A stretch of 64,000 bases of DNA from Patescibacteria group bacterium. Its GTDB lineage: Bacteria > Patescibacteriota > Patescibacteriia > Magasanikbacterales > GWA2-37-8. The translations under genes were made by a program, and so were the position numbers. The stretch spans positions 95,464-159,463 of the forward strand of contig SCQK01000014.1 of assembly GCA_004321885.1 (NCBI GenBank), in the 5' to 3' direction. Shown here one piece after another: positions 9,257-56,731 of this stretch; position 1 is the stretch's first letter, and each line of letters starts with the position of its first letter. The notes beneath the pieces were generated by a model. It ran no database searches and had not been told where the DNA came from. It saw only the letters and a program-made list of their open reading frames with translations.

Positions 9257-9895
9257 CTAAAACAATATCGCCGCATGCGGCATTCTCGCTTTCAAAGTCC
9301 TAATCGCGCTCTTGGGAATGGGATTGCCGATAAGGTTCAGCTCGGTCAGATTTTTTAATCCGGCGATGCCGGCGGGAACGGACGTTAATTTGTTGTAAGA
9401 AAAATCCAAAATTTGCAGTGATTTAATTTCTAAAATTTTTGCCGGGATTGAGCGGTAGGTATTTTTGGCCAGAGATAAATGTGTGAGTTTTTTCAGGTTG
9501 GCGATTTCATCGGGCATGGTGTCAATTTTGTTTTCGCCGTAGTTTAGGGTTTCCAGGTTGCCGAGCTGGCCGATTTCGGCCGGGATGCCGGTCATATTAT
9601 TATTGCTCGCGTCCAAGAATTTCAAATTTTGCAAATGGCGGATTTCGGCCGGCAAGGCGCCGGTGAGATTGTTGCCGGACAAGTCCAAAATTTCCAGCGC
9701 GGTTTTGCTAAAAATATCCATGGGTACTTTGGATAAGCCGCGCTCGCTAAGGTCAAGCTGGGTCTGGCTTTGCGGTATGCGCGGCGCGAAAGTTTTCAGC
9801 GCCCCATCCCGCGATTTGGCAAAGTATAAAATACCGGCCGCGGCCACAACGAGCAAAGCAATAATCGCTCCAAGCGTTACTTTTTTTTGAGGCAT
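9257..9895 (-). CDS. Membrane-anchored leucine-rich-repeat (LRR) protein
   Basis: Tandem LxxLxLxxNxL repeats (LDLSGNNLTG, LDASNNNMTG, LSLAKNTYRS, LDFSYNKLTS). Start at MPQKK (9895) chosen because the upstream ORF-track extension to 9994 is encoded by a family-D repeat. Confidence 0.75.
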   Translation of the reverse strand: MPQKKVTLGAIIALLVVAAAGILYFAKSRDGALKTFAPRIPQSQTQLDLSERGLSKVPMDIFSKTALEILDLSGNNLTGALPAEIRHLQNLKFLDASNNNMTGIPAEIGQLGNLETLNYGENKIDTMPDEIANLKKLTHLSLAKNTYRSIPAKILEIKSLQILDFSYNKLTSVPAGIAGLKNLTELNLIGNPIPKSAIRTLKARMPHAAILF

Positions 9896-9907
9896 ATATT
9901 TGTGGTT

Positions 9908-9987
9908 CCTCTCCCCTTTACAAGGGGGAGGCTTGTCACCACACCAAAAATTTTGGTGTGGTGACAGAGAGGGGGTAATCCTCTCAC
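9908..9987. repeat. Family-D palindromic repeat (CACACCAAAAATTTTGGTGTG core flanked by CCCCT/AGGGG arms)
   Basis: Near-identical core to 26953..27025; generates an N-terminal ORF extension of the LRR gene. Confidence 0.85.
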
Positions 9988-10232
9988 ATTTCAATATCTT
10001 TTCTCATTTCCGCGAATTGCGCTTTGGTTATTTCGCCTTTGACGTATCTCTCTTTGAGAATGGCGAGCGCGTCGGCGCGCGTTGGGCTAGTTCTGGGCGG
10101 TTCGTGGTCGCGGCGCTCGCGCGAACCCTGCACCAGTGAAACAATACCCCATATCAGCGCCATCCAAAAAAGCAGCATAAACACCGGGCCGATAATTCCG
10201 TATCCTCCCCAGTTGGTAAATGGGAACATCAT
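9984..10232 (-). CDS. SHOCT-domain small membrane protein
   Basis: One TM plus C-terminal ILKERYVKGEITKAQFAEMRKDI, the SHOCT signature. Confidence 0.7.
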   Translation of the reverse strand: MMFPFTNWGGYGIIGPVFMLLFWMALIWGIVSLVQGSRERRDHEPPRTSPTRADALAILKERYVKGEITKAQFAEMRKDIEM

Positions 10233-10240
10233 AAATTATT

Positions 10241-10275
10241 GTCATTCCGGTCGCCTGCGGCGGCCGGAATCCAGT
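10241..10275. repeat. Family-B repeat
   Basis: GTCATTCCGGTCGCCTGCGGCGGCCGGAATCCAGT. Confidence 0.85.
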
Positions 10276-10321
10276 TAATTAGCTCATTCTATCTTAACAG
10301 ATTATAATTTTTTGTCCATAA

Positions 10322-10349
10322 TTGACATTTTCGCTATTTTTTTCTATAA
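10322..10349 (+). promoter_or_regulatory. Consensus sigma70-type promoter (TTGACA-17-TATAAT) driving GIY-YIG ORF / tRNA-Asn
   Basis: TTGACAttttcgctatttttttcTATAAT seen directly. Confidence 0.65.
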
Positions 10350-10353
10350 TAGT

Positions 10354-10383
10354 TGTCATTCCGGACTTGATCCGGAATCCAGC
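10354..10383. repeat. Family-B repeat just downstream of promoter 10322
   Basis: TGTCATTCCGGACTTGATCCGGAATCCAGC. Confidence 0.85.
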
Positions 10384-10444
10384 TCCTTTGAAAATAAATT
10401 CCGGGGTAGCGCTCCGCCAGCCGGCGGAGGTAGCGCAGTTGGCT

Positions 10445-10693
10445 GTGTATACTGTTTACGCTATTTACAATCAAAAAAACGATAAAATTTATATTGGACA
10501 AACAAAAGACATGGCCGAACGATTAAGGTTGCATAATGAAAAAATCCTTCTTGGTTATACTTATAGATTTGATGGAAATTGGAAATTAATTTATAGTGTA
10601 CAGATCGAGAATAGACAAAAAGCTTTACAAAGAGAGAGACAACTTAAAAGTTTTAGAGGCAGAGAATTTATAAAACAATTTATTCCGGGGTAG
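10445..10693 (+). CDS. GIY-YIG nuclease-domain protein (stand-alone, YhbQ/UPF0213-like)
   Basis: VYTVYAIYNQKNDKIYIGQTKDMAERLRLHN is a canonical GIY-YIG motif with Arg and downstream Glu (IENRQKA). GTG start at 10445 with GGAGG 14 nt upstream; the ORF track begins at TTG 10322 inside the promoter. Its stop codon lies inside tRNA-Asn. Confidence 0.65.
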   Translation: MYTVYAIYNQKNDKIYIGQTKDMAERLRLHNEKILLGYTYRFDGNWKLIYSVQIENRQKALQRERQLKSFRGREFIKQFIPG

Positions 10694-10755
10694 CGCAGCG
10701 GTAGCGCAGAGGACTGTTAATCCTTTGGTCGTGGGTTCGAATCCCACCCCCGGAG
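10684..10755 (+). tRNA. tRNA-Asn (anticodon GTT)
   Basis: Cloverleaf by hand: acceptor TCCGGGG/CCCCGGA, D-arm GCGC-AGCGGTA-GCGC, anticodon loop CTGTTAA, T-arm GTGGG-TTCGAAT-CCCAC, discriminator G; no encoded CCA. Confidence 0.85.
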
Positions 10756-10761
10756 CAAAAA

Positions 10762-10888
10762 CAAAAATACTGGTAATATCCAGTATTTTTGCTTTTGCTC
10801 GGAATACACGAAAAAATACGAACGGATTTGGGCGAATTTTAGGGCGCGGGCGAAATTCCCTCCCCACACCCCTTCCTTTCGCCCGCGA
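10762..10888. repeat. Left terminal inverted repeat of island
   Basis: Reverse complement of 15960..16086; spurious ORFs 10625..10924(-) and 15902..16105(+) share the peptide GRGVGREFRPRPKIRPNPFV because of it. Confidence 0.85.
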
Positions 10889-11065
10889 AGCGAAACGGGG
10901 GCTCTGGTGGACAAAAACTGCCAAAGAACCCGTAAAAAATGTCGGCCGAACTTTATGTTGGCCAAAAGCAAACTTTTCTCTTTGATATTGAATTACGATT
11001 GTTAAAGTGATATAATCAAGTCAATGAGCGTCCCATTCTTGCTATCTTATGTATACTATCATACT

Positions 11066-11272
11066 ATGGAAGAAAAGAAAACAATCGGCGAAAAAATAAA
11101 AAAATGGAGAGCGAAGAAAGATTTGACACAAGACGCCTTGGCAAAAAAGGCGGATATTCCATATAGCACGATTGCTAAAATTGAATCAGATGTTATTACG
11201 AGGCCAACAATACAGACAGTGCAAAAGCTGGCCGTTGGTTTGGGTATAACACTTGATGAATTATTAAAATAG
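11066..11272 (+). CDS. XRE-family helix-turn-helix transcriptional regulator
   Basis: IKKWRAKKDLTQDALAKKADIPYSTIAKIESD is a Cro/C1-type HTH. Extended -10 promoter (TGaTATAAT) with TTGAAT -35 at about 10989-11017. Confidence 0.8.
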   Translation: MEEKKTIGEKIKKWRAKKDLTQDALAKKADIPYSTIAKIESDVITRPTIQTVQKLAVGLGITLDELLK

Positions 11273-11273
11273 T

Positions 11274-12155
11274 ATGGTTAAAGGTCACAAAGTGAAAAAT
11301 GAAAAAATCGATAAAAAAATAGCTTTTGGTTGGTATGGCGGTAAGTTTAGTCATCTTGACTGGCTTTTGCCGCTGTTGCCGGAAACCGATCATTTTTGTG
11401 AGCCGTTTGGTGGCTCTGCTGCCGTTATCATAAACAGAAATCCTTCTTTAATCGAAACATATAATGATTTAGATGGCGAGGTAGTTAATTTCTTCAGAGT
11501 ATTAAGGGAACATCCTAACGATCTTATAAGACAAATTGGGCTTACTCCATTTTCGAGGGAAGAATTCAAATATGCTATTGAACACGAAGATGATAAAAAT
11601 CTTTCAGATATTGAGAGGGCTAGGTCTTTTTTTATCCGCGCAAGGCAGGTTAGGACTGGACTTGCTCAAAAAGCTACTTCTGGTAGATGGGCAAATTGTA
11701 AATTAACTTCCAGAGCCGGAATGTCAGGTGCGGTCTCGAGGTGGTTGGGAAGTGTTGACGGGCTAACAGAGATTGCGGAAAGGCTTTTACGAATACAAAT
11801 TGAAAATGCTCCTGCAATTGAAGTTGTAAGGCGATATGATAGCCCACAGACCTTATTTTACTGTGATCCTCCGTATACACATGATTCTCGAGGTGATATA
11901 AATGCCTATAAATTTGAAATGGACAGGGATGCGCATGTCGAACTGGCCGAAACACTAAAACAGGTTAAGGGGTTAGTCGCTATATCGGGTTACGACTCTC
12001 CCCTAATGAACGAGCTGTATCAAGGATGGAAAAAAATCGCTGGGCCAGTAAAAAATGCAAATTCTATACAACAACCTAGACAAGAAATTTTATGGGTTAA
12101 TTATAATATTAATGATAAATCTTTATGGAAAAAGCAGCAAAGATCCTTGATATAA
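11274..12155 (+). CDS. Dam-family (D12 class) N6-adenine DNA methyltransferase
   Basis: N-terminal WYGGK...EPFGGSAAV (SAM-binding motif I) and catalytic DPPY (FYCDPPYTHDS). Confidence 0.85.
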   Translation: MVKGHKVKNEKIDKKIAFGWYGGKFSHLDWLLPLLPETDHFCEPFGGSAAVIINRNPSLIETYNDLDGEVVNFFRVLREHPNDLIRQIGLTPFSREEFKYAIEHEDDKNLSDIERARSFFIRARQVRTGLAQKATSGRWANCKLTSRAGMSGAVSRWLGSVDGLTEIAERLLRIQIENAPAIEVVRRYDSPQTLFYCDPPYTHDSRGDINAYKFEMDRDAHVELAETLKQVKGLVAISGYDSPLMNELYQGWKKIAGPVKNANSIQQPRQEILWVNYNINDKSLWKKQQRSLI

Positions 12156-13246
12156 TTTTGAAAAAAACTAATGGGCATCTAGAAAAACCTTTTATAAAAA
12201 ATAGGGAGATTTTGCGGAAAATAGAATTTATTTCTCATAATATTCAAAATCGAGCCGGCGTCCGCCTTATTATGTCTTGCTTACTGGCGAAACTTGACGA
12301 TCCAAAAGTTGATGTAAGAAAACCTTATACGGAGATTGGCAGTCGTGATAGTTTTTCGGGCAGAACATATGACGAGGCCTATGTCGGCAGTTTTATCACT
12401 AAACATCACTTGCCGTGTAATCCAACAACAGCGTTTTTGACGCCAGCTCTACGTAATAGAAATATTGTACTTACGCCAAAAGTAAATTTAGTCGGCAGGC
12501 CACCAGAAATTTATCAATACGTTCTCGACCTCCTAGAATTAGTATTTAAAGGATTTCTTGCCCCAGCCATTCTGCTTGCGGAAATAATGCGACAACTTGT
12601 TCTTTTACGAGATGAAAATCAAAAACGTATAAAATCTTTGTTAAAGAATCTCGGGAAAAATGGTAGTGTGCCTCTTTCGGGTGAAGACATAATAAAACTT
12701 ATTGAGCAACATTTAAATTGCAAAGGAGCCAGCAGACTTCCCGTACTTATCGTGGCCGCTGCTTACAACACTATTGGAAATTTCATCCAAGAAAAAGTAT
12801 TACCTATCTTTTCTCACAATTCTGCAGATAAACAAACTGGTGCGCTCGGCGATATACAAATTACGTTAATTAATGACGAGAATGTAGTAACTAGTTATGA
12901 GATGAAGATGAAGAAGGTCACAAAGGACGACATTGATATCGCTCTGCAAAAAATTTCGGGAGTTAAGTACAAAATAGATAATTATATTTTTATAACGACG
13001 GATATAATAGATGATTCGGTAAAAGAATATGCGAAATCACTTTATGAGCAAACCGGCGGAATAGAGATAGTTGTCTTAGATTGTATTAGTTTTCTTAGGC
13101 ATTTTATTCATTTATTCCACCGCTTCAGATTGCCATATCTTGAAGAGTATCAAAAGTTGGTGATGGGTGAAGCAGACAGCGCGGTCAGTCAGCCCCTTAA
13201 AGAGGCATTTCTTGCTCTTCGACAGGCAACAGAAAGCGCGAATTAA
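12125..13246 (+). CDS. Putative type II restriction endonuclease (PD-(D/E)xK) cognate to the Dam-like MTase
   Basis: Overlaps MTase stop (translational coupling). GD-x17-YEMKMK fits a D...ExK nuclease core. No family recognised by eye; assignment is by context. Confidence 0.45.
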   Translation: MEKAAKILDIILKKTNGHLEKPFIKNREILRKIEFISHNIQNRAGVRLIMSCLLAKLDDPKVDVRKPYTEIGSRDSFSGRTYDEAYVGSFITKHHLPCNPTTAFLTPALRNRNIVLTPKVNLVGRPPEIYQYVLDLLELVFKGFLAPAILLAEIMRQLVLLRDENQKRIKSLLKNLGKNGSVPLSGEDIIKLIEQHLNCKGASRLPVLIVAAAYNTIGNFIQEKVLPIFSHNSADKQTGALGDIQITLINDENVVTSYEMKMKKVTKDDIDIALQKISGVKYKIDNYIFITTDIIDDSVKEYAKSLYEQTGGIEIVVLDCISFLRHFIHLFHRFRLPYLEEYQKLVMGEADSAVSQPLKEAFLALRQATESAN

Positions 13247-22856: not shown

Positions 22857-23055
22857 GTTCTCTCCTTTTCTTGAAGCGCCCTATCCATAAGGACGCTTGT
22901 TTGTTTTTGTCAAGTTTTGCCTATTTTGGCCAAAACTCGGGCGTATCATATCTTGCGCCTGGCCAAAAAACAAGCAGAACCTATTATTTAATACACAAAA
23001 AGCGAGAGTTGTCAACCTTGCGCCAATATGGTAAATATGGTAAAATTGTTGGCGA

Positions 23056-23084
23056 TGGATTCCGGCTCGGGGGCCGGAATGACA
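23056..23084. repeat. Family-B repeat upstream of PAP2 gene
   Basis: TGGATTCCGGCTCGGGGGCCGGAATGACA. Confidence 0.85.
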
Positions 23085-27592: not shown

Positions 27593-27599
27593 CTAACAC

Positions 27600-27632
27600 A
27601 AACTACTCCGCCCGGGCGGAGTAGTTTTTTGC
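27600..27632 (+). terminator. Rho-independent terminator after tRNA-Pro
   Basis: ACTACTCCGCCCGGGCGGAGTAGT + TTTTTT. Confidence 0.8.
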
Positions 27633-27634
27633 TA

Positions 27635-27671
27635 CTGGATTCCGGTCGCCTGCGACGACCGGAATGACAAT
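27635..27671. repeat. Family-B repeat
   Basis: CTGGATTCCGGTCGCCTGCGACGACCGGAATGACAA. Confidence 0.85.
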
Positions 27672-55511: not shown

Positions 55512-56731
55512 AAATAGCTCACGTTATTTCAACGTTTCCGCCGCGAATCGGCGGAATGGGAAAAGTGTGTTTTGAAGAGGCGAAGGAATTGGCCAAGCGC
55601 GGGCACGATGTGACCGTGTTTACTTTGAGGTATGCGGATACCCCCTCCTCTGTCCCCCCCCTAAGAGGGGGAGGAATAAATGTGGTGCGAATGTGGCCGG
55701 TGGTGAGGGCAGGCGACGCGGGTTGGGCGCCGCAATTATTTTGGAAGTTGAAAAATTTTGACATCGTTCATTTACACTATCCGTTTTACGGCGGGGCGCA
55801 TTGCGTGTTGTTGGCCCGGCTTTTTCGGAAGCAAAAATATGTGCTCACGTATCACATGGACGCTCGGCCCGCAGGATTGTTAAAAAAATTTTTTCAAAAA
55901 ATTTACGATTTTATTTTCGCGAAAGCGATTTTGAGGAACGCGGAGAAAATGATTGTGATGGATAGGAAGTATTTTGAGGCCAGCACAAATACGACCGTTG
56001 GTTCCATAGTTCCCGACTCAGTCCGGACTGTGGAACCCAATGCCGGCACTTTGGCTCCACAGCCCCGACGTAAAGTCGGGGACTATGGAGCCAGCGTGAT
56101 AGAAATCGCGCCGGGCGTGGATGCGGAGATCTACCAGCCGTCAGGTGGCTGGCCTCAAGGGGGCCACTTCGGGGCCGGGAAAAAAACAATTTTGTTCGCG
56201 GCCAATCCCATGCCGTTGAAGCGGTTGGATTTGTTACTGAAGGCGTTGCGGTTGATGAACGAAGATGTTTCGCTTTTAGTGGTGGGAGGCGGTTACGCGC
56301 TTGAGGATTACAAAAAAATGGCCGAGGAGCTGGGGATAAAAAACAAAGTGGTTTTCGCCGGCCGGTGCGACAGCGAACAAAAAATGGCCGAGTATTATAA
56401 CTCCGCTTCTTGTCTGGCCATACCATCGCAATCCGAATCGTTTTCTTTGTCAGCGATTGAAGCAATGGCTTGCGGTTGCCCGGTGGTGGCGCGTGATATG
56501 CCGGCTATGGCCGGACGCGTGACACACGGAGTTGATGGTTGGCTGGTAAACAGCGATAAGCCCGAGGATTGGGCGCGCGTTCTTCGCGAAGCTGTGGGAC
56601 TTACCGCGGAAGAGCGCGAGCGCATAGGCGCGGCGGGCAGAAAAAAAGTCGTGGAAAATTATGATTGGAATAGACATGTGGATGAATTGGAGAAAGTGTA
56701 CAGTATGGATTCCGGCTCAAGGCCGGAATGA
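55508..56731 (+). CDS. GT4-family glycosyltransferase with two in-frame repeat insertions
   Basis: ESFSLSAIEAMACGCPVVA is the GT4 E-x7-E region. Family-A repeat (55640..55677) encodes DTPSSVPPLRGGG; family-C REP pair (56000..56096) encodes ...SIVPDSVRTVEPNAGTLAPQPRRKVGDYGAS... Confidence 0.8.
   Translation: MKIAHVISTFPPRIGGMGKVCFEEAKELAKRGHDVTVFTLRYADTPSSVPPLRGGGINVVRMWPVVRAGDAGWAPQLFWKLKNFDIVHLHYPFYGGAHCVLLARLFRKQKYVLTYHMDARPAGLLKKFFQKIYDFIFAKAILRNAEKMIVMDRKYFEASTNTTVGSIVPDSVRTVEPNAGTLAPQPRRKVGDYGASVIEIAPGVDAEIYQPSGGWPQGGHFGAGKKTILFAANPMPLKRLDLLLKALRLMNEDVSLLVVGGGYALEDYKKMAEELGIKNKVVFAGRCDSEQKMAEYYNSASCLAIPSQSESFSLSAIEAMACGCPVVARDMPAMAGRVTHGVDGWLVNSDKPEDWARVLREAVGLTAEERERIGAAGRKKVVENYDWNRHVDELEKVYSMDSGSRPE
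55640..55677. repeat. Family-A hairpin inserted in-frame in GT4 gene
   Basis: CCCCCTCCTCTGTCCCCCCCTAAGAGGGGGAGG. Confidence 0.8.
56000..56096. repeat. Family-C REP-like hairpins (2 units) inserted in-frame in GT4 gene
   Basis: GGTTCCATAGTTCCCGACTCAGTCCGGACTGTGGAACC and GGCTCCACAGCCCCGACGTAAAGTCGGGGACTATGGAGCC. Confidence 0.85.

Follow-up and report, generated by a model that had tools for sequence, protein, structure and literature searches.

We analysed a 64-kb stretch of DNA from a Patescibacteria group bacterium (contig SCQK01000014.1, positions 95,464 to 159,463; hereafter the window, whose own numbering is used throughout) and found that its positions 10398-10756 are one copy of a widespread cassette, seen in hundreds of ultra-small bacteria and made of a domain-only GIY-YIG nuclease gene, an intact tRNA-Asn gene fused to it and a copy of the same tRNA that is disabled by a palindrome. 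The reading that we favour from the sequence comparisons, with a probability of roughly 60%, is that of a selfish cassette in which an Slx1/UPF0213-like nuclease, a working tRNA and a palindrome-disabled tRNA copy are co-transcribed from the tRNA promoter. A full-text literature search, whose coverage leaves out most subscription-journal papers, returned no published description of such a cassette, and the family is apparently undescribed.

Organization of the cassette in the window

The nuclease gene (10445..10693, plus strand) encodes a protein of 82 amino acids (aa), from a GTG start to a TAG stop at 10691-10693, and matches Pfam PF01541 (GIY-YIG) with 59.8 bits against a cut-off of 22.6 (E = 3.3e-16). 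The intact tRNA-Asn gene (anticodon GTT; 10684..10756, plus strand; detected by ARAGORN and by Rfam RF00005 with 73.4 bits) is the working copy, and the stop codon of the nuclease gene lies inside it. The TAG corresponds to U8-A9-G10 of the tRNA, and the final 10 nucleotides (nt) of the nuclease open reading frame (ORF) are nt 1-10 of tRNA-Asn. A GIY-YIG ORF ending inside the tRNA had been recognized in an initial annotation of this DNA, and both elements of that description are confirmed here.

The 64 kb contain exactly two copies of the sequence TTCCGGGGTAGCGC, at 10399-10412 and at 10683-10696, and addition of the preceding A makes it an exact 15-mer (10398-10412 and 10682-10696). The initial annotation had described a 14-bp direct repeat derived from the tRNA. 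It placed the right copy correctly at 10683-10696 and the left copy one base off, at 10400-10413. The derivation holds, as the repeat aligns with tRNA-Asn and is distinct from the GTCATTCCGG hairpin repeat family of the window. The length does not hold: the exact repeat measures 15 bp and the alignment extends over tRNA nt 1-35. When 10396-10456 is aligned with tRNA-Asn, identity over nt 1-13 is followed by a net insertion of 13 nt, identity then resumes over GGTAGCGCAG, and similarity continues to CTGT (U35). Read from this alignment, the upstream repeat is a copy of the 5' half of tRNA-Asn, nt 1-35, with its D-loop split by a 16-nt palindrome.

The first part of this half-copy (10398..10412, plus strand) consists of AT followed by tRNA nt 1-13, forms the left copy of the exact 15-bp repeat and covers the 5' strand of the acceptor stem, U8 and A9, and the 5' strand of the D-stem. 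The palindromic hairpin TCCGCCAGCCGGCGGA comes next (10413..10428, plus strand). This element, called hp1 below, has a 6-bp stem and a 4-nt loop and replaces D-loop nt 14-16. The second part of the half-copy (GGTAGCGCAG TTGGC TGT, nt 18-35; 10429..10446, plus strand) comprises the GG of the D-loop, the 3' strand of the D-stem, the 5' strand of the anticodon stem and the anticodon loop up to U35, and shares its last two bases with the GTG start codon at 10445. The string GGAGGTAGCGCAGTTGGCT, noticed earlier as a second sequence resembling a tRNA 5' end, is indeed present at 10426-10444, but it represents nt 18-35 of the same half-copy and not a separate 5' end. The anticodon-stem strand of the half-copy reads GTTGG, as against GAGGA in the resident tRNA-Asn, and GTTGG is the allele of tRNA-Asn genes from other lineages (L024, L048, L066). 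Neither ARAGORN nor Rfam called the half-copy a tRNA, and neither the half-copy nor the hairpin matched a known RNA family in Rfam (E up to 1).

A consensus sigma-70-type promoter, TTGACA-17-TATAAT, with 12 of 12 matching positions (10322..10350, plus strand), stands upstream, as previously noted. As the probable promoter of the tRNA-Asn transcription unit, it would now drive the half-copy, the ORF and the tRNA. A terminator scan of the window locus gave no convincing terminator ahead of tRNA-Asn, and a terminator-like hairpin with a T-rich tail (10753..10800, plus strand; an inverted repeat with 21-nt arms that are 95% complementary) follows the tRNA, sharing its last 4 nt. The predicted promoter upstream, the lack of a convincing terminator before the tRNA and the terminator after it fit a single transcript, in agreement with the earlier proposal that the tRNA is co-transcribed with the nuclease gene and processed out of its mRNA.

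A longer call of 123 aa from TTG 10322 was rejected as an over-call because the homologues, as well as P0001, a database protein identical to that of the window, begin at the codon that corresponds to GTG 10445, which gives the protein of 82 aa. Database ORFs of several homologues (P0003, P0004, P0010, P0019, P0020, P0067, P0072, P0084, P0113) likewise run through the half-tRNA and the palindrome, which adds false peptides at the N- or C-terminus, for example 'VALRQLAEVE' and 'SPPAGGG'. For annotation, this means that gene callers extend Patescibacteria ORFs through the half-tRNA ('VALRQLAEV', 'SPPAGGG') and that tRNA pseudo-copies can be miscalled.

The same organization recurs across Patescibacteria

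A protein-profile scan of one genome per species returned 217 relatives of the nuclease, of which 80 loci were analysed. Together with the window, these Patescibacteria loci provide an unbiased set of 84 copies, chosen by protein similarity alone. In 72 of the 84 copies (86%), the TAG stop of the nuclease gene falls on nt 8-10 of a tRNA or tRNA-like 5' end. The overlapped element is the intact tRNA-Asn in 55 copies, a tRNA-Asn interrupted after CTGT in 10, the next unit of a tandem in 4 and a tRNA-Lys in 1, and 2 copies lie at a contig end with the 5' part of the tRNA visible at the stop. TAG accounts for 79 of 83 nuclease stops. Chance is excluded because this geometry of repeat, ORF and tRNA is found in 72 of 84 independent copies. 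The hairpin hp1 is also a family feature, present upstream in 80 of the 84 copies: 58 carry the perfect palindrome of the family consensus TCCGCCAGCTGGCGGA, 19 are loop-only variants and 3 show compensatory stem changes.

These counts bear directly on the origin of the window locus. In the initial annotation, a homing-endonuclease gene was thought to have been inserted once, locally, in the leader of tRNA-Asn, leaving a 14-bp target duplication and a second tRNA fragment. Such an event would account for the exact 15-bp direct repeat that flanks the ORF and for the GIY-YIG nature of its product, but the same architecture in at least 72 of 84 copies, from 80 other genomes, indicates that it was not created in the window genome. 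Moreover, the duplicated segment is tRNA nt 1-35 split by a palindrome, hence there is no 14-bp target duplication, and the supposed second fragment continues the same half-copy. We regard a local insertion as very improbable.

The homologues occupy the same place relative to tRNA-Asn in at least 72 of the 84 copies, as would be the case for the conserved YhbQ-like gene that the initial annotation had considered. However, the gene is not an ordinary conserved orthologue, because the neighbourhoods differ, decayed, tandem and ORF-less copies exist, and sister cassettes sit on other tRNAs. Both flanking genes are common to 8 of 1035 locus pairs only, and the window matches no locus at either flank. 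Within the 64-kb window, no further GIY-YIG copy was found, and none lies beside its tRNA-Pro.

Across the family, the half-copy begins within 2 nt of tRNA nt 1 and extends to a point between nt 22 and U35, its tRNA similarity reaching at most 2 nt beyond U35. Its acceptor strand matches that of the local tRNA at 7 of 7 positions in 38 of 46 parsed loci, compared with 8% for non-self pairs, and the D-stem variants (GCGC or GCTC) also agree between half-copy and local tRNA. The anticodon-stem part is mostly eroded, from the 3' side.

Several other roles for these sequences were considered and set aside. The GGAGG of the hairpin is unlikely to be a ribosome-binding site because its spacing to the start codon ranges from 14 to ~45 nt across loci, and the idea that the hairpin arms mimic the acceptor mini-helix of tRNA-Asn (U1-A72 plus G73) was dropped because the arms do not co-vary with the local acceptor stem. 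A conserved promoter just 5' of the half-copy was rejected, with -10-like hexamers in 60 of 80 loci versus 145 of 240 control windows. A genome-wide repeat or uptake signal was likewise discarded for hp1, which is present as a single copy in the 64 kb. Its 55 matches in viral contigs, for the most part within GC-rich coding sequence, probably arose by chance.

Some minor features were noted in the same loci. In about 15 of the 80 (L039, L053, L055, L056, L058 and L071 among them), a TATAAT-like hexamer ends 6-7 nt ahead of the nuclease ATG (exactly 6 nt in 11), which suggests a private promoter and a leaderless mRNA in those ~15 loci; the window copy has no such hexamer. The hp1 palindrome is also found inside the group I intron of a tRNA-Asn gene (L004:3337-3352), and eight more copies lie outside a half-tRNA context. 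The contigs of L019, L032, L057, L059, L061, L072, L079 and others stop at most ~70 nt past the nuclease gene, at or inside the tRNA, and these assembly breaks seem to be those expected for repeated or polymorphic sequence.

Predicted type of the nuclease

The cassette proteins form a homogeneous group: 518 homologues were collected, almost all from Patescibacteria and nearly all of 82-83 aa, ending in F-I-P-x-stop. Residues Y5, Y16, R26, H30 and E64 do not vary among 46 homologues, and I-TevI has its catalytic residues Y6, Y17, R27 and H31 at the positions of the first four. The predicted structure has a mean predicted local distance difference test score (pLDDT) of 96.6 and an alpha/beta fold with a three-stranded sheet (strands 2-9, 14-20 and 46-54). 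By sequence, the nearest solved structures are two UPF0213 proteins, EF2693 (1ywl, E = 6.6e-4) and BH0048 (1zg2, E = 6.9e-3), followed by the I-TevI catalytic domain. GIY-YIG domains are also the top Protein Data Bank matches of the model. Foldseek ranked BH0048 first and Slx1 at positions 2-8, with template modelling (TM) scores of 0.62-0.69 and root-mean-square deviations of 2.0-2.6 A, and the fit to I-TevI was poorer (TM 0.46) than that to UPF0213 and Slx1. Judged by this model, the protein is a GIY-YIG nuclease that consists of the catalytic domain only and belongs to the Slx1/UPF0213 (YhbQ-like) type. Because it has no DNA-binding domain, it is not a homing endonuclease of the I-TevI type. 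Weak matches to 'homing endonuclease' families were obtained in PHROG. The domain-only GIY-YIG family to which it belongs is large, with 788 clusters at 50% identity for E up to 1e-10 and 9711 for E up to 1e-3; we know of no assigned function for these domain-only proteins.

Cassettes on other tRNAs, a second nuclease subfamily and decayed copies

A metagenome scan for the hairpin together with GGTAGAGC gave at least 120 loci, a set from which the frequency of the hairpin cannot be estimated because the loci were selected by it. Among the matches listed, about 80% then carry the nuclease gene, and most are on tRNA-Asn. The same stop-in-tRNA geometry was found at least 8 times on tRNA-Lys (TTT or CTT), and at least one cassette is on tRNA-Phe, with the stop deeper inside the tRNA. 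Cassettes on tRNA-Thr(CGT) were also seen among the matches listed (L188, L207, L246).

The scan also revealed incomplete forms. At least 22 of the 120 or more metagenome loci are ORF-less and consist of the hairpin-bearing half-copy and, after a spacer of 10-70 nt, an intact tRNA; Thr and Asn account for most of these tRNAs, besides a few Lys and a single Gly. Deletion relics were observed in L249, where the ORF is internally deleted, and in L173 and L239, where it is reduced to ATG-TTT-CCC-CTG-TAG. Tandem units of half-tRNA and ORF occur as well. At three loci (L223, L246 and L264), a full-length tRNA copy disabled by a palindrome accompanies an intact one. In L223 the disabled copy has a T-stem mismatch and is separated by 4.8 kb from the intact tRNA-Asn, which follows a different GIY-YIG gene, and in L246 the disabled copy is in divergent orientation.

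The GIY-YIG gene of L223 defines a second subfamily, at best ~40% identical to the window protein, with 83 homologues in Patescibacteria and Bacteroidota. All nine independent loci of this subfamily that were examined are at a tRNA gene: Phe, Asn, Arg(ACG), Arg(TCG) or Met(CAT). All nine carry a different, perfect palindrome, CCTGCCTGCCGGCAGGCAGG (hp2), inserted at nt 21/22 or 9/10 of a second, disabled copy of that tRNA, and hp1 is found in the disabled copy at none of them. Each type of GC-rich palindrome is paired with one nuclease subfamily, hp1 with subfamily 1 and hp2 with subfamily 2. Both are located at D-stem/loop boundaries, nested copies with a palindrome inside a palindrome occur, and a recurrent variant of hp2 forms a G.U pair on the sense strand only. 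The relative position of the two tRNA copies varies: in L267-269 the disabled copy is downstream of the intact tRNA, and L270 is without a disabled copy.

The two systems also meet in single loci. Single half-tRNAs that combine hp2 at nt 9/10 with hp1 in the D-loop are found at L014:~960-1050 and L213:~9880-9935, and L016 has two cassettes in tandem, hp2 with subfamily 2 and then hp1 with subfamily 1. Locus L260, on the chromosome of the Bacteroidota strain Muricauda sp. SCSIO 64092 (CP095413.1:2443294-2444933), shows the same layout on tRNA-Met(CAT); a nested insertion elaborates its hp2, and part of the 3' end is repeated downstream.

The decayed and displaced forms are relevant to the possibility that the nuclease gene is a domesticated, vertically inherited host gene serving tRNA-Asn in repair, processing or copy-number control, with the half-tRNA as its regulatory leader. 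In one variant, the half-tRNA would mimic the 5' half, pair with the 3' half of the tRNA and so balance tRNA release against ORF translation. The constant position across the whole phylum, the protein clusters that partly follow host class and the acceptor strand of the half-copy, which tracks the local tRNA while the 3' part decays, are in line with such a gene. So are the conserved sequence of the palindrome and its compensatory stems, and the sense-strand-only G.U wobble in hp2 hints at folding as RNA or single-stranded DNA. However, the ORF-less relics, the internally deleted ORF and the tandem arrays show a gene that is dispensable and unstable, and the same cassette is found on six other tRNA species and in another phylum. 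In addition, the D-stem variants match between the copies, which pairing with the 3' half would not need, and the disabled copy may be downstream, inverted or kilobases off. A host function of this kind appears unlikely to us.

Group I introns at the same position of tRNA-Asn

Nakagawa et al. (2026) reported and validated group I introns at position 35/36 of Patescibacteria tRNA-Asn, present in 15 of 95 complete genomes and carrying HNH genes when long (PMC13011429); the words 'GIY-YIG', 'duplicat' and 'hairpin' never occur in that paper. These introns share with the cassette half-copies the phylum, the tRNA gene and the position in the anticodon loop, the tRNA-Asn half-copies ending at or before U35, i.e. 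at the published 35/36 site. A group I intron (Rfam RF00028, 51-88 bits) was detected in the adjacent tRNA at 8 of 10 loci tested. Its junctions, with CTGT before the intron, G as the last intron base and TAA after it, correspond to position 35/36, and the introns of these relatives sit downstream of the nuclease ORF.

This coincidence raises the question of whether the cassette is the remnant of a group I intron, the half-copy being the 5' exon, the ORF a relic of the intron ORF and the intact tRNA a later intron-less replacement, or, in a variant, whether a free-standing endonuclease homes together with the intron at 35/36. Besides the shared end point, the 10 of 84 copies that adjoin a tRNA-Asn interrupted at this site favour a connection. 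Yet no group I intron ribozyme (RF00028) was found in window 10150-10900 (E up to 1), the ORFs of the published tRNA-Asn introns are HNH and not GIY-YIG (PMC13011429), half-copies on other tRNAs end anywhere from nt 33 to 37, and the palindrome is left unexplained. The intron frequency of ~12% at cassette loci shows no enrichment over the 15 of 95 published genomes, and the two elements look independent because the intron is not commoner among cassette loci. An intron remnant is, in our view, improbable. The intron system keeps the tRNA functional by splicing, whereas the cassette, with no ribozyme in the window, does so by means of a second copy.

Relation to known nucleases

By analogy, the nearest precedent for the cassette would be SegB of T4/T6 phages, a free-standing GIY-YIG homing endonuclease of a tRNA gene cluster. 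It is reported to cleave tRNA-gene DNA and to yield tandem tRNA-segB units in which the 3' end of segB is joined to the 5' end of a tRNA gene through microhomology (PMC13096335). The 3' end of the cassette ORF likewise coincides with a tRNA 5' end, and tandem units of half-tRNA and ORF occur. The two differ in that SegB has a DNA-binding portion and is phage-borne, whereas the cassette protein is an 82-aa catalytic domain, chromosomal and nearer in fold to Slx1/UPF0213 than to I-TevI. The accessible part of the SegB paper mentions neither a tRNA copy disabled by a palindrome nor a tRNA that contains the stop codon (PMC13096335).

The bacterial members of UPF0213 (YhbQ-like, COG2827) are domain-only, as is the cassette protein. 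To our knowledge, no function or genomic context has been established for these bacterial proteins. Slx1 is one of the structure-specific nucleases, with branched and stem-loop DNA as its substrates, and cleavage of this type would fit the association with palindromes and their place at stem/loop boundaries of the D-arm. Unlike the cassette nuclease, which is a catalytic domain only, Slx1 depends on Slx4 and contains an additional zinc-finger domain. An association with tRNA genes and with a cognate palindrome characterizes the cassette and does not appear in descriptions of UPF0213 or Slx1.

With I-TevI-type intron-encoded homing endonucleases, and with the free-standing endonucleases of intronless and collaborative homing, the cassette shares the catalytic motif aligned with I-TevI, the weak PHROG matches and signs of gain, decay and loss reminiscent of a homing cycle, namely the deleted ORF of L249, the ORF-less relics, the tandem units and the contrast between L270, which has no disabled copy, and L267-269. 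It differs from I-TevI in that its protein has neither linker nor DNA-binding domain, its gene is not intronic and its target stands intact beside the gene.

How the cassette might persist

In the selfish reading that we favour, the nuclease would act on tRNA-gene DNA, probably recognising the structure of the D-arm, and would duplicate or replace the tRNA in the manner of phage SegB. The element would persist since the linked tRNA is the functional copy and the other one is disabled by the palindrome. In the window, a single transcript would run from the consensus promoter through the half-copy, the ORF and the tRNA to the terminator. RNase P processing and trans-translation are established processes in bacteria. 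Release of the tRNA by RNase P at 10684 would cut the mRNA 10 nt before the end of the ORF, so that the mRNA would lose the last two sense codons and the stop, leading to low nuclease output, and full-length nuclease would come only from unprocessed RNA.

Several observations weigh against this selfish reading. The 82-aa protein has no DNA-binding domain, its catalytic domain filling the whole length, and the match to the group I intron endonuclease family TIGR01453 reaches 24.4 bits against a cut-off of 56 and covers residues 3-32 only. The nuclease proteins group in part by host class and by acceptor type of the tRNA, a pattern that fits long vertical inheritance as well as it fits mobility. 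A synteny search with the flanking genes found no empty-site allele in a close relative; the closest relatives of the flanking YibE/F gene are only ~60% identical and have different neighbourhoods. The intact tRNA next to the gene does not differ from the disabled copy in mature sequence and yet would have to escape. Lastly, the rule that the linked copy is the working one is not universal, because in L264 the intact tRNA-Arg is upstream and the ORF ends in the disabled copy.

A more specific version is that the palindrome-bearing tRNA copy is the cognate partner of the nuclease, the pair acting as a 'cleave-and-rescue' drive on essential tRNA genes. Each subfamily would read its own palindrome, as a DNA or RNA hairpin, and the structure-specific nuclease would attack tRNA-gene DNA at the D-arm. 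Unlinked copies would become disabled by the palindrome, and the cell would come to depend on the copy fused to the nuclease gene. We offer this version tentatively and consider it doubtful. A more extreme form, in which the half-tRNA transcript would guide the nuclease, has no direct support. If cleave-and-rescue were true, it would provide a function for the large orphan family of domain-only GIY-YIG (UPF0213/YhbQ-like) proteins.

Independently of the mechanism, two subfamilies of domain-only GIY-YIG proteins show a fixed genomic grammar of nuclease, working tRNA and palindrome-disabled tRNA copy. This grammar suggests a route by which a selfish nuclease could enter an essential single-copy RNA gene without a ribozyme, a spare gene copy replacing self-splicing. 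It might also be an added driver of the unusual tRNA-gene biology of Patescibacteria.

Flanking sequences

Partial copies of the tRNA 3' end, from the T-loop to the 3' terminus, were observed 60-900 nt after the intact tRNA in 12 or more loci other than the window (e.g. L071, L076, L233, L029, L009, L216, L178, L210, L172 and L170/L198), and a hairpin of the TCCGCC..GGCGGA type lies in or beside the 3'-end remnant in L029 and L170/L198. These copies may be remains of the 3' half of the old gene, or integrase scars. In the window, tRNA-Asn is followed at 11024-13246 by a helix-turn-helix gene (C-protein-like), a D12-class N6-adenine methyltransferase gene and a gene for a weakly SacI-like restriction endonuclease, which together are probably a type II restriction-modification module.

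Both observations recall an integrase-type island at a tRNA-Asn attachment site, tRNA genes being common targets of such islands, and the cassette repeat could then be a scar of attachment-site duplication. However, the window repeat corresponds to the 5' half of the tRNA, no second 3'-end copy was found in the window with up to 3 mismatches allowed (an integrase gene was not searched for), the repeat encloses only the gene of the 82-aa nuclease, and the architecture recurs with unrelated flanks. An island scar thus seems extremely improbable.

The cassette leader in the window contains a hairpin repeat that is not tRNA-derived, TTGTCATTCCGG..CCGGAATCCAG (10354..10382, plus strand), which is not in the cassette consensus of other loci. 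The repeat, of the form TTGTCATTCCGG-(loop)-CCGGAATCCA, has five copies in the window, at 10240-10274 and 10354-10382 on the plus strand and at 23050-23081, 27630-27666 and 56700-56730 on the minus strand. They lie mostly at gene ends, and two of them are in the cassette leader. The terminator hairpin after tRNA-Pro (27594-27630) has a stem with CTCCGCC..GGCGGAG that resembles the arms of hp1, a likeness that may be a coincidence.

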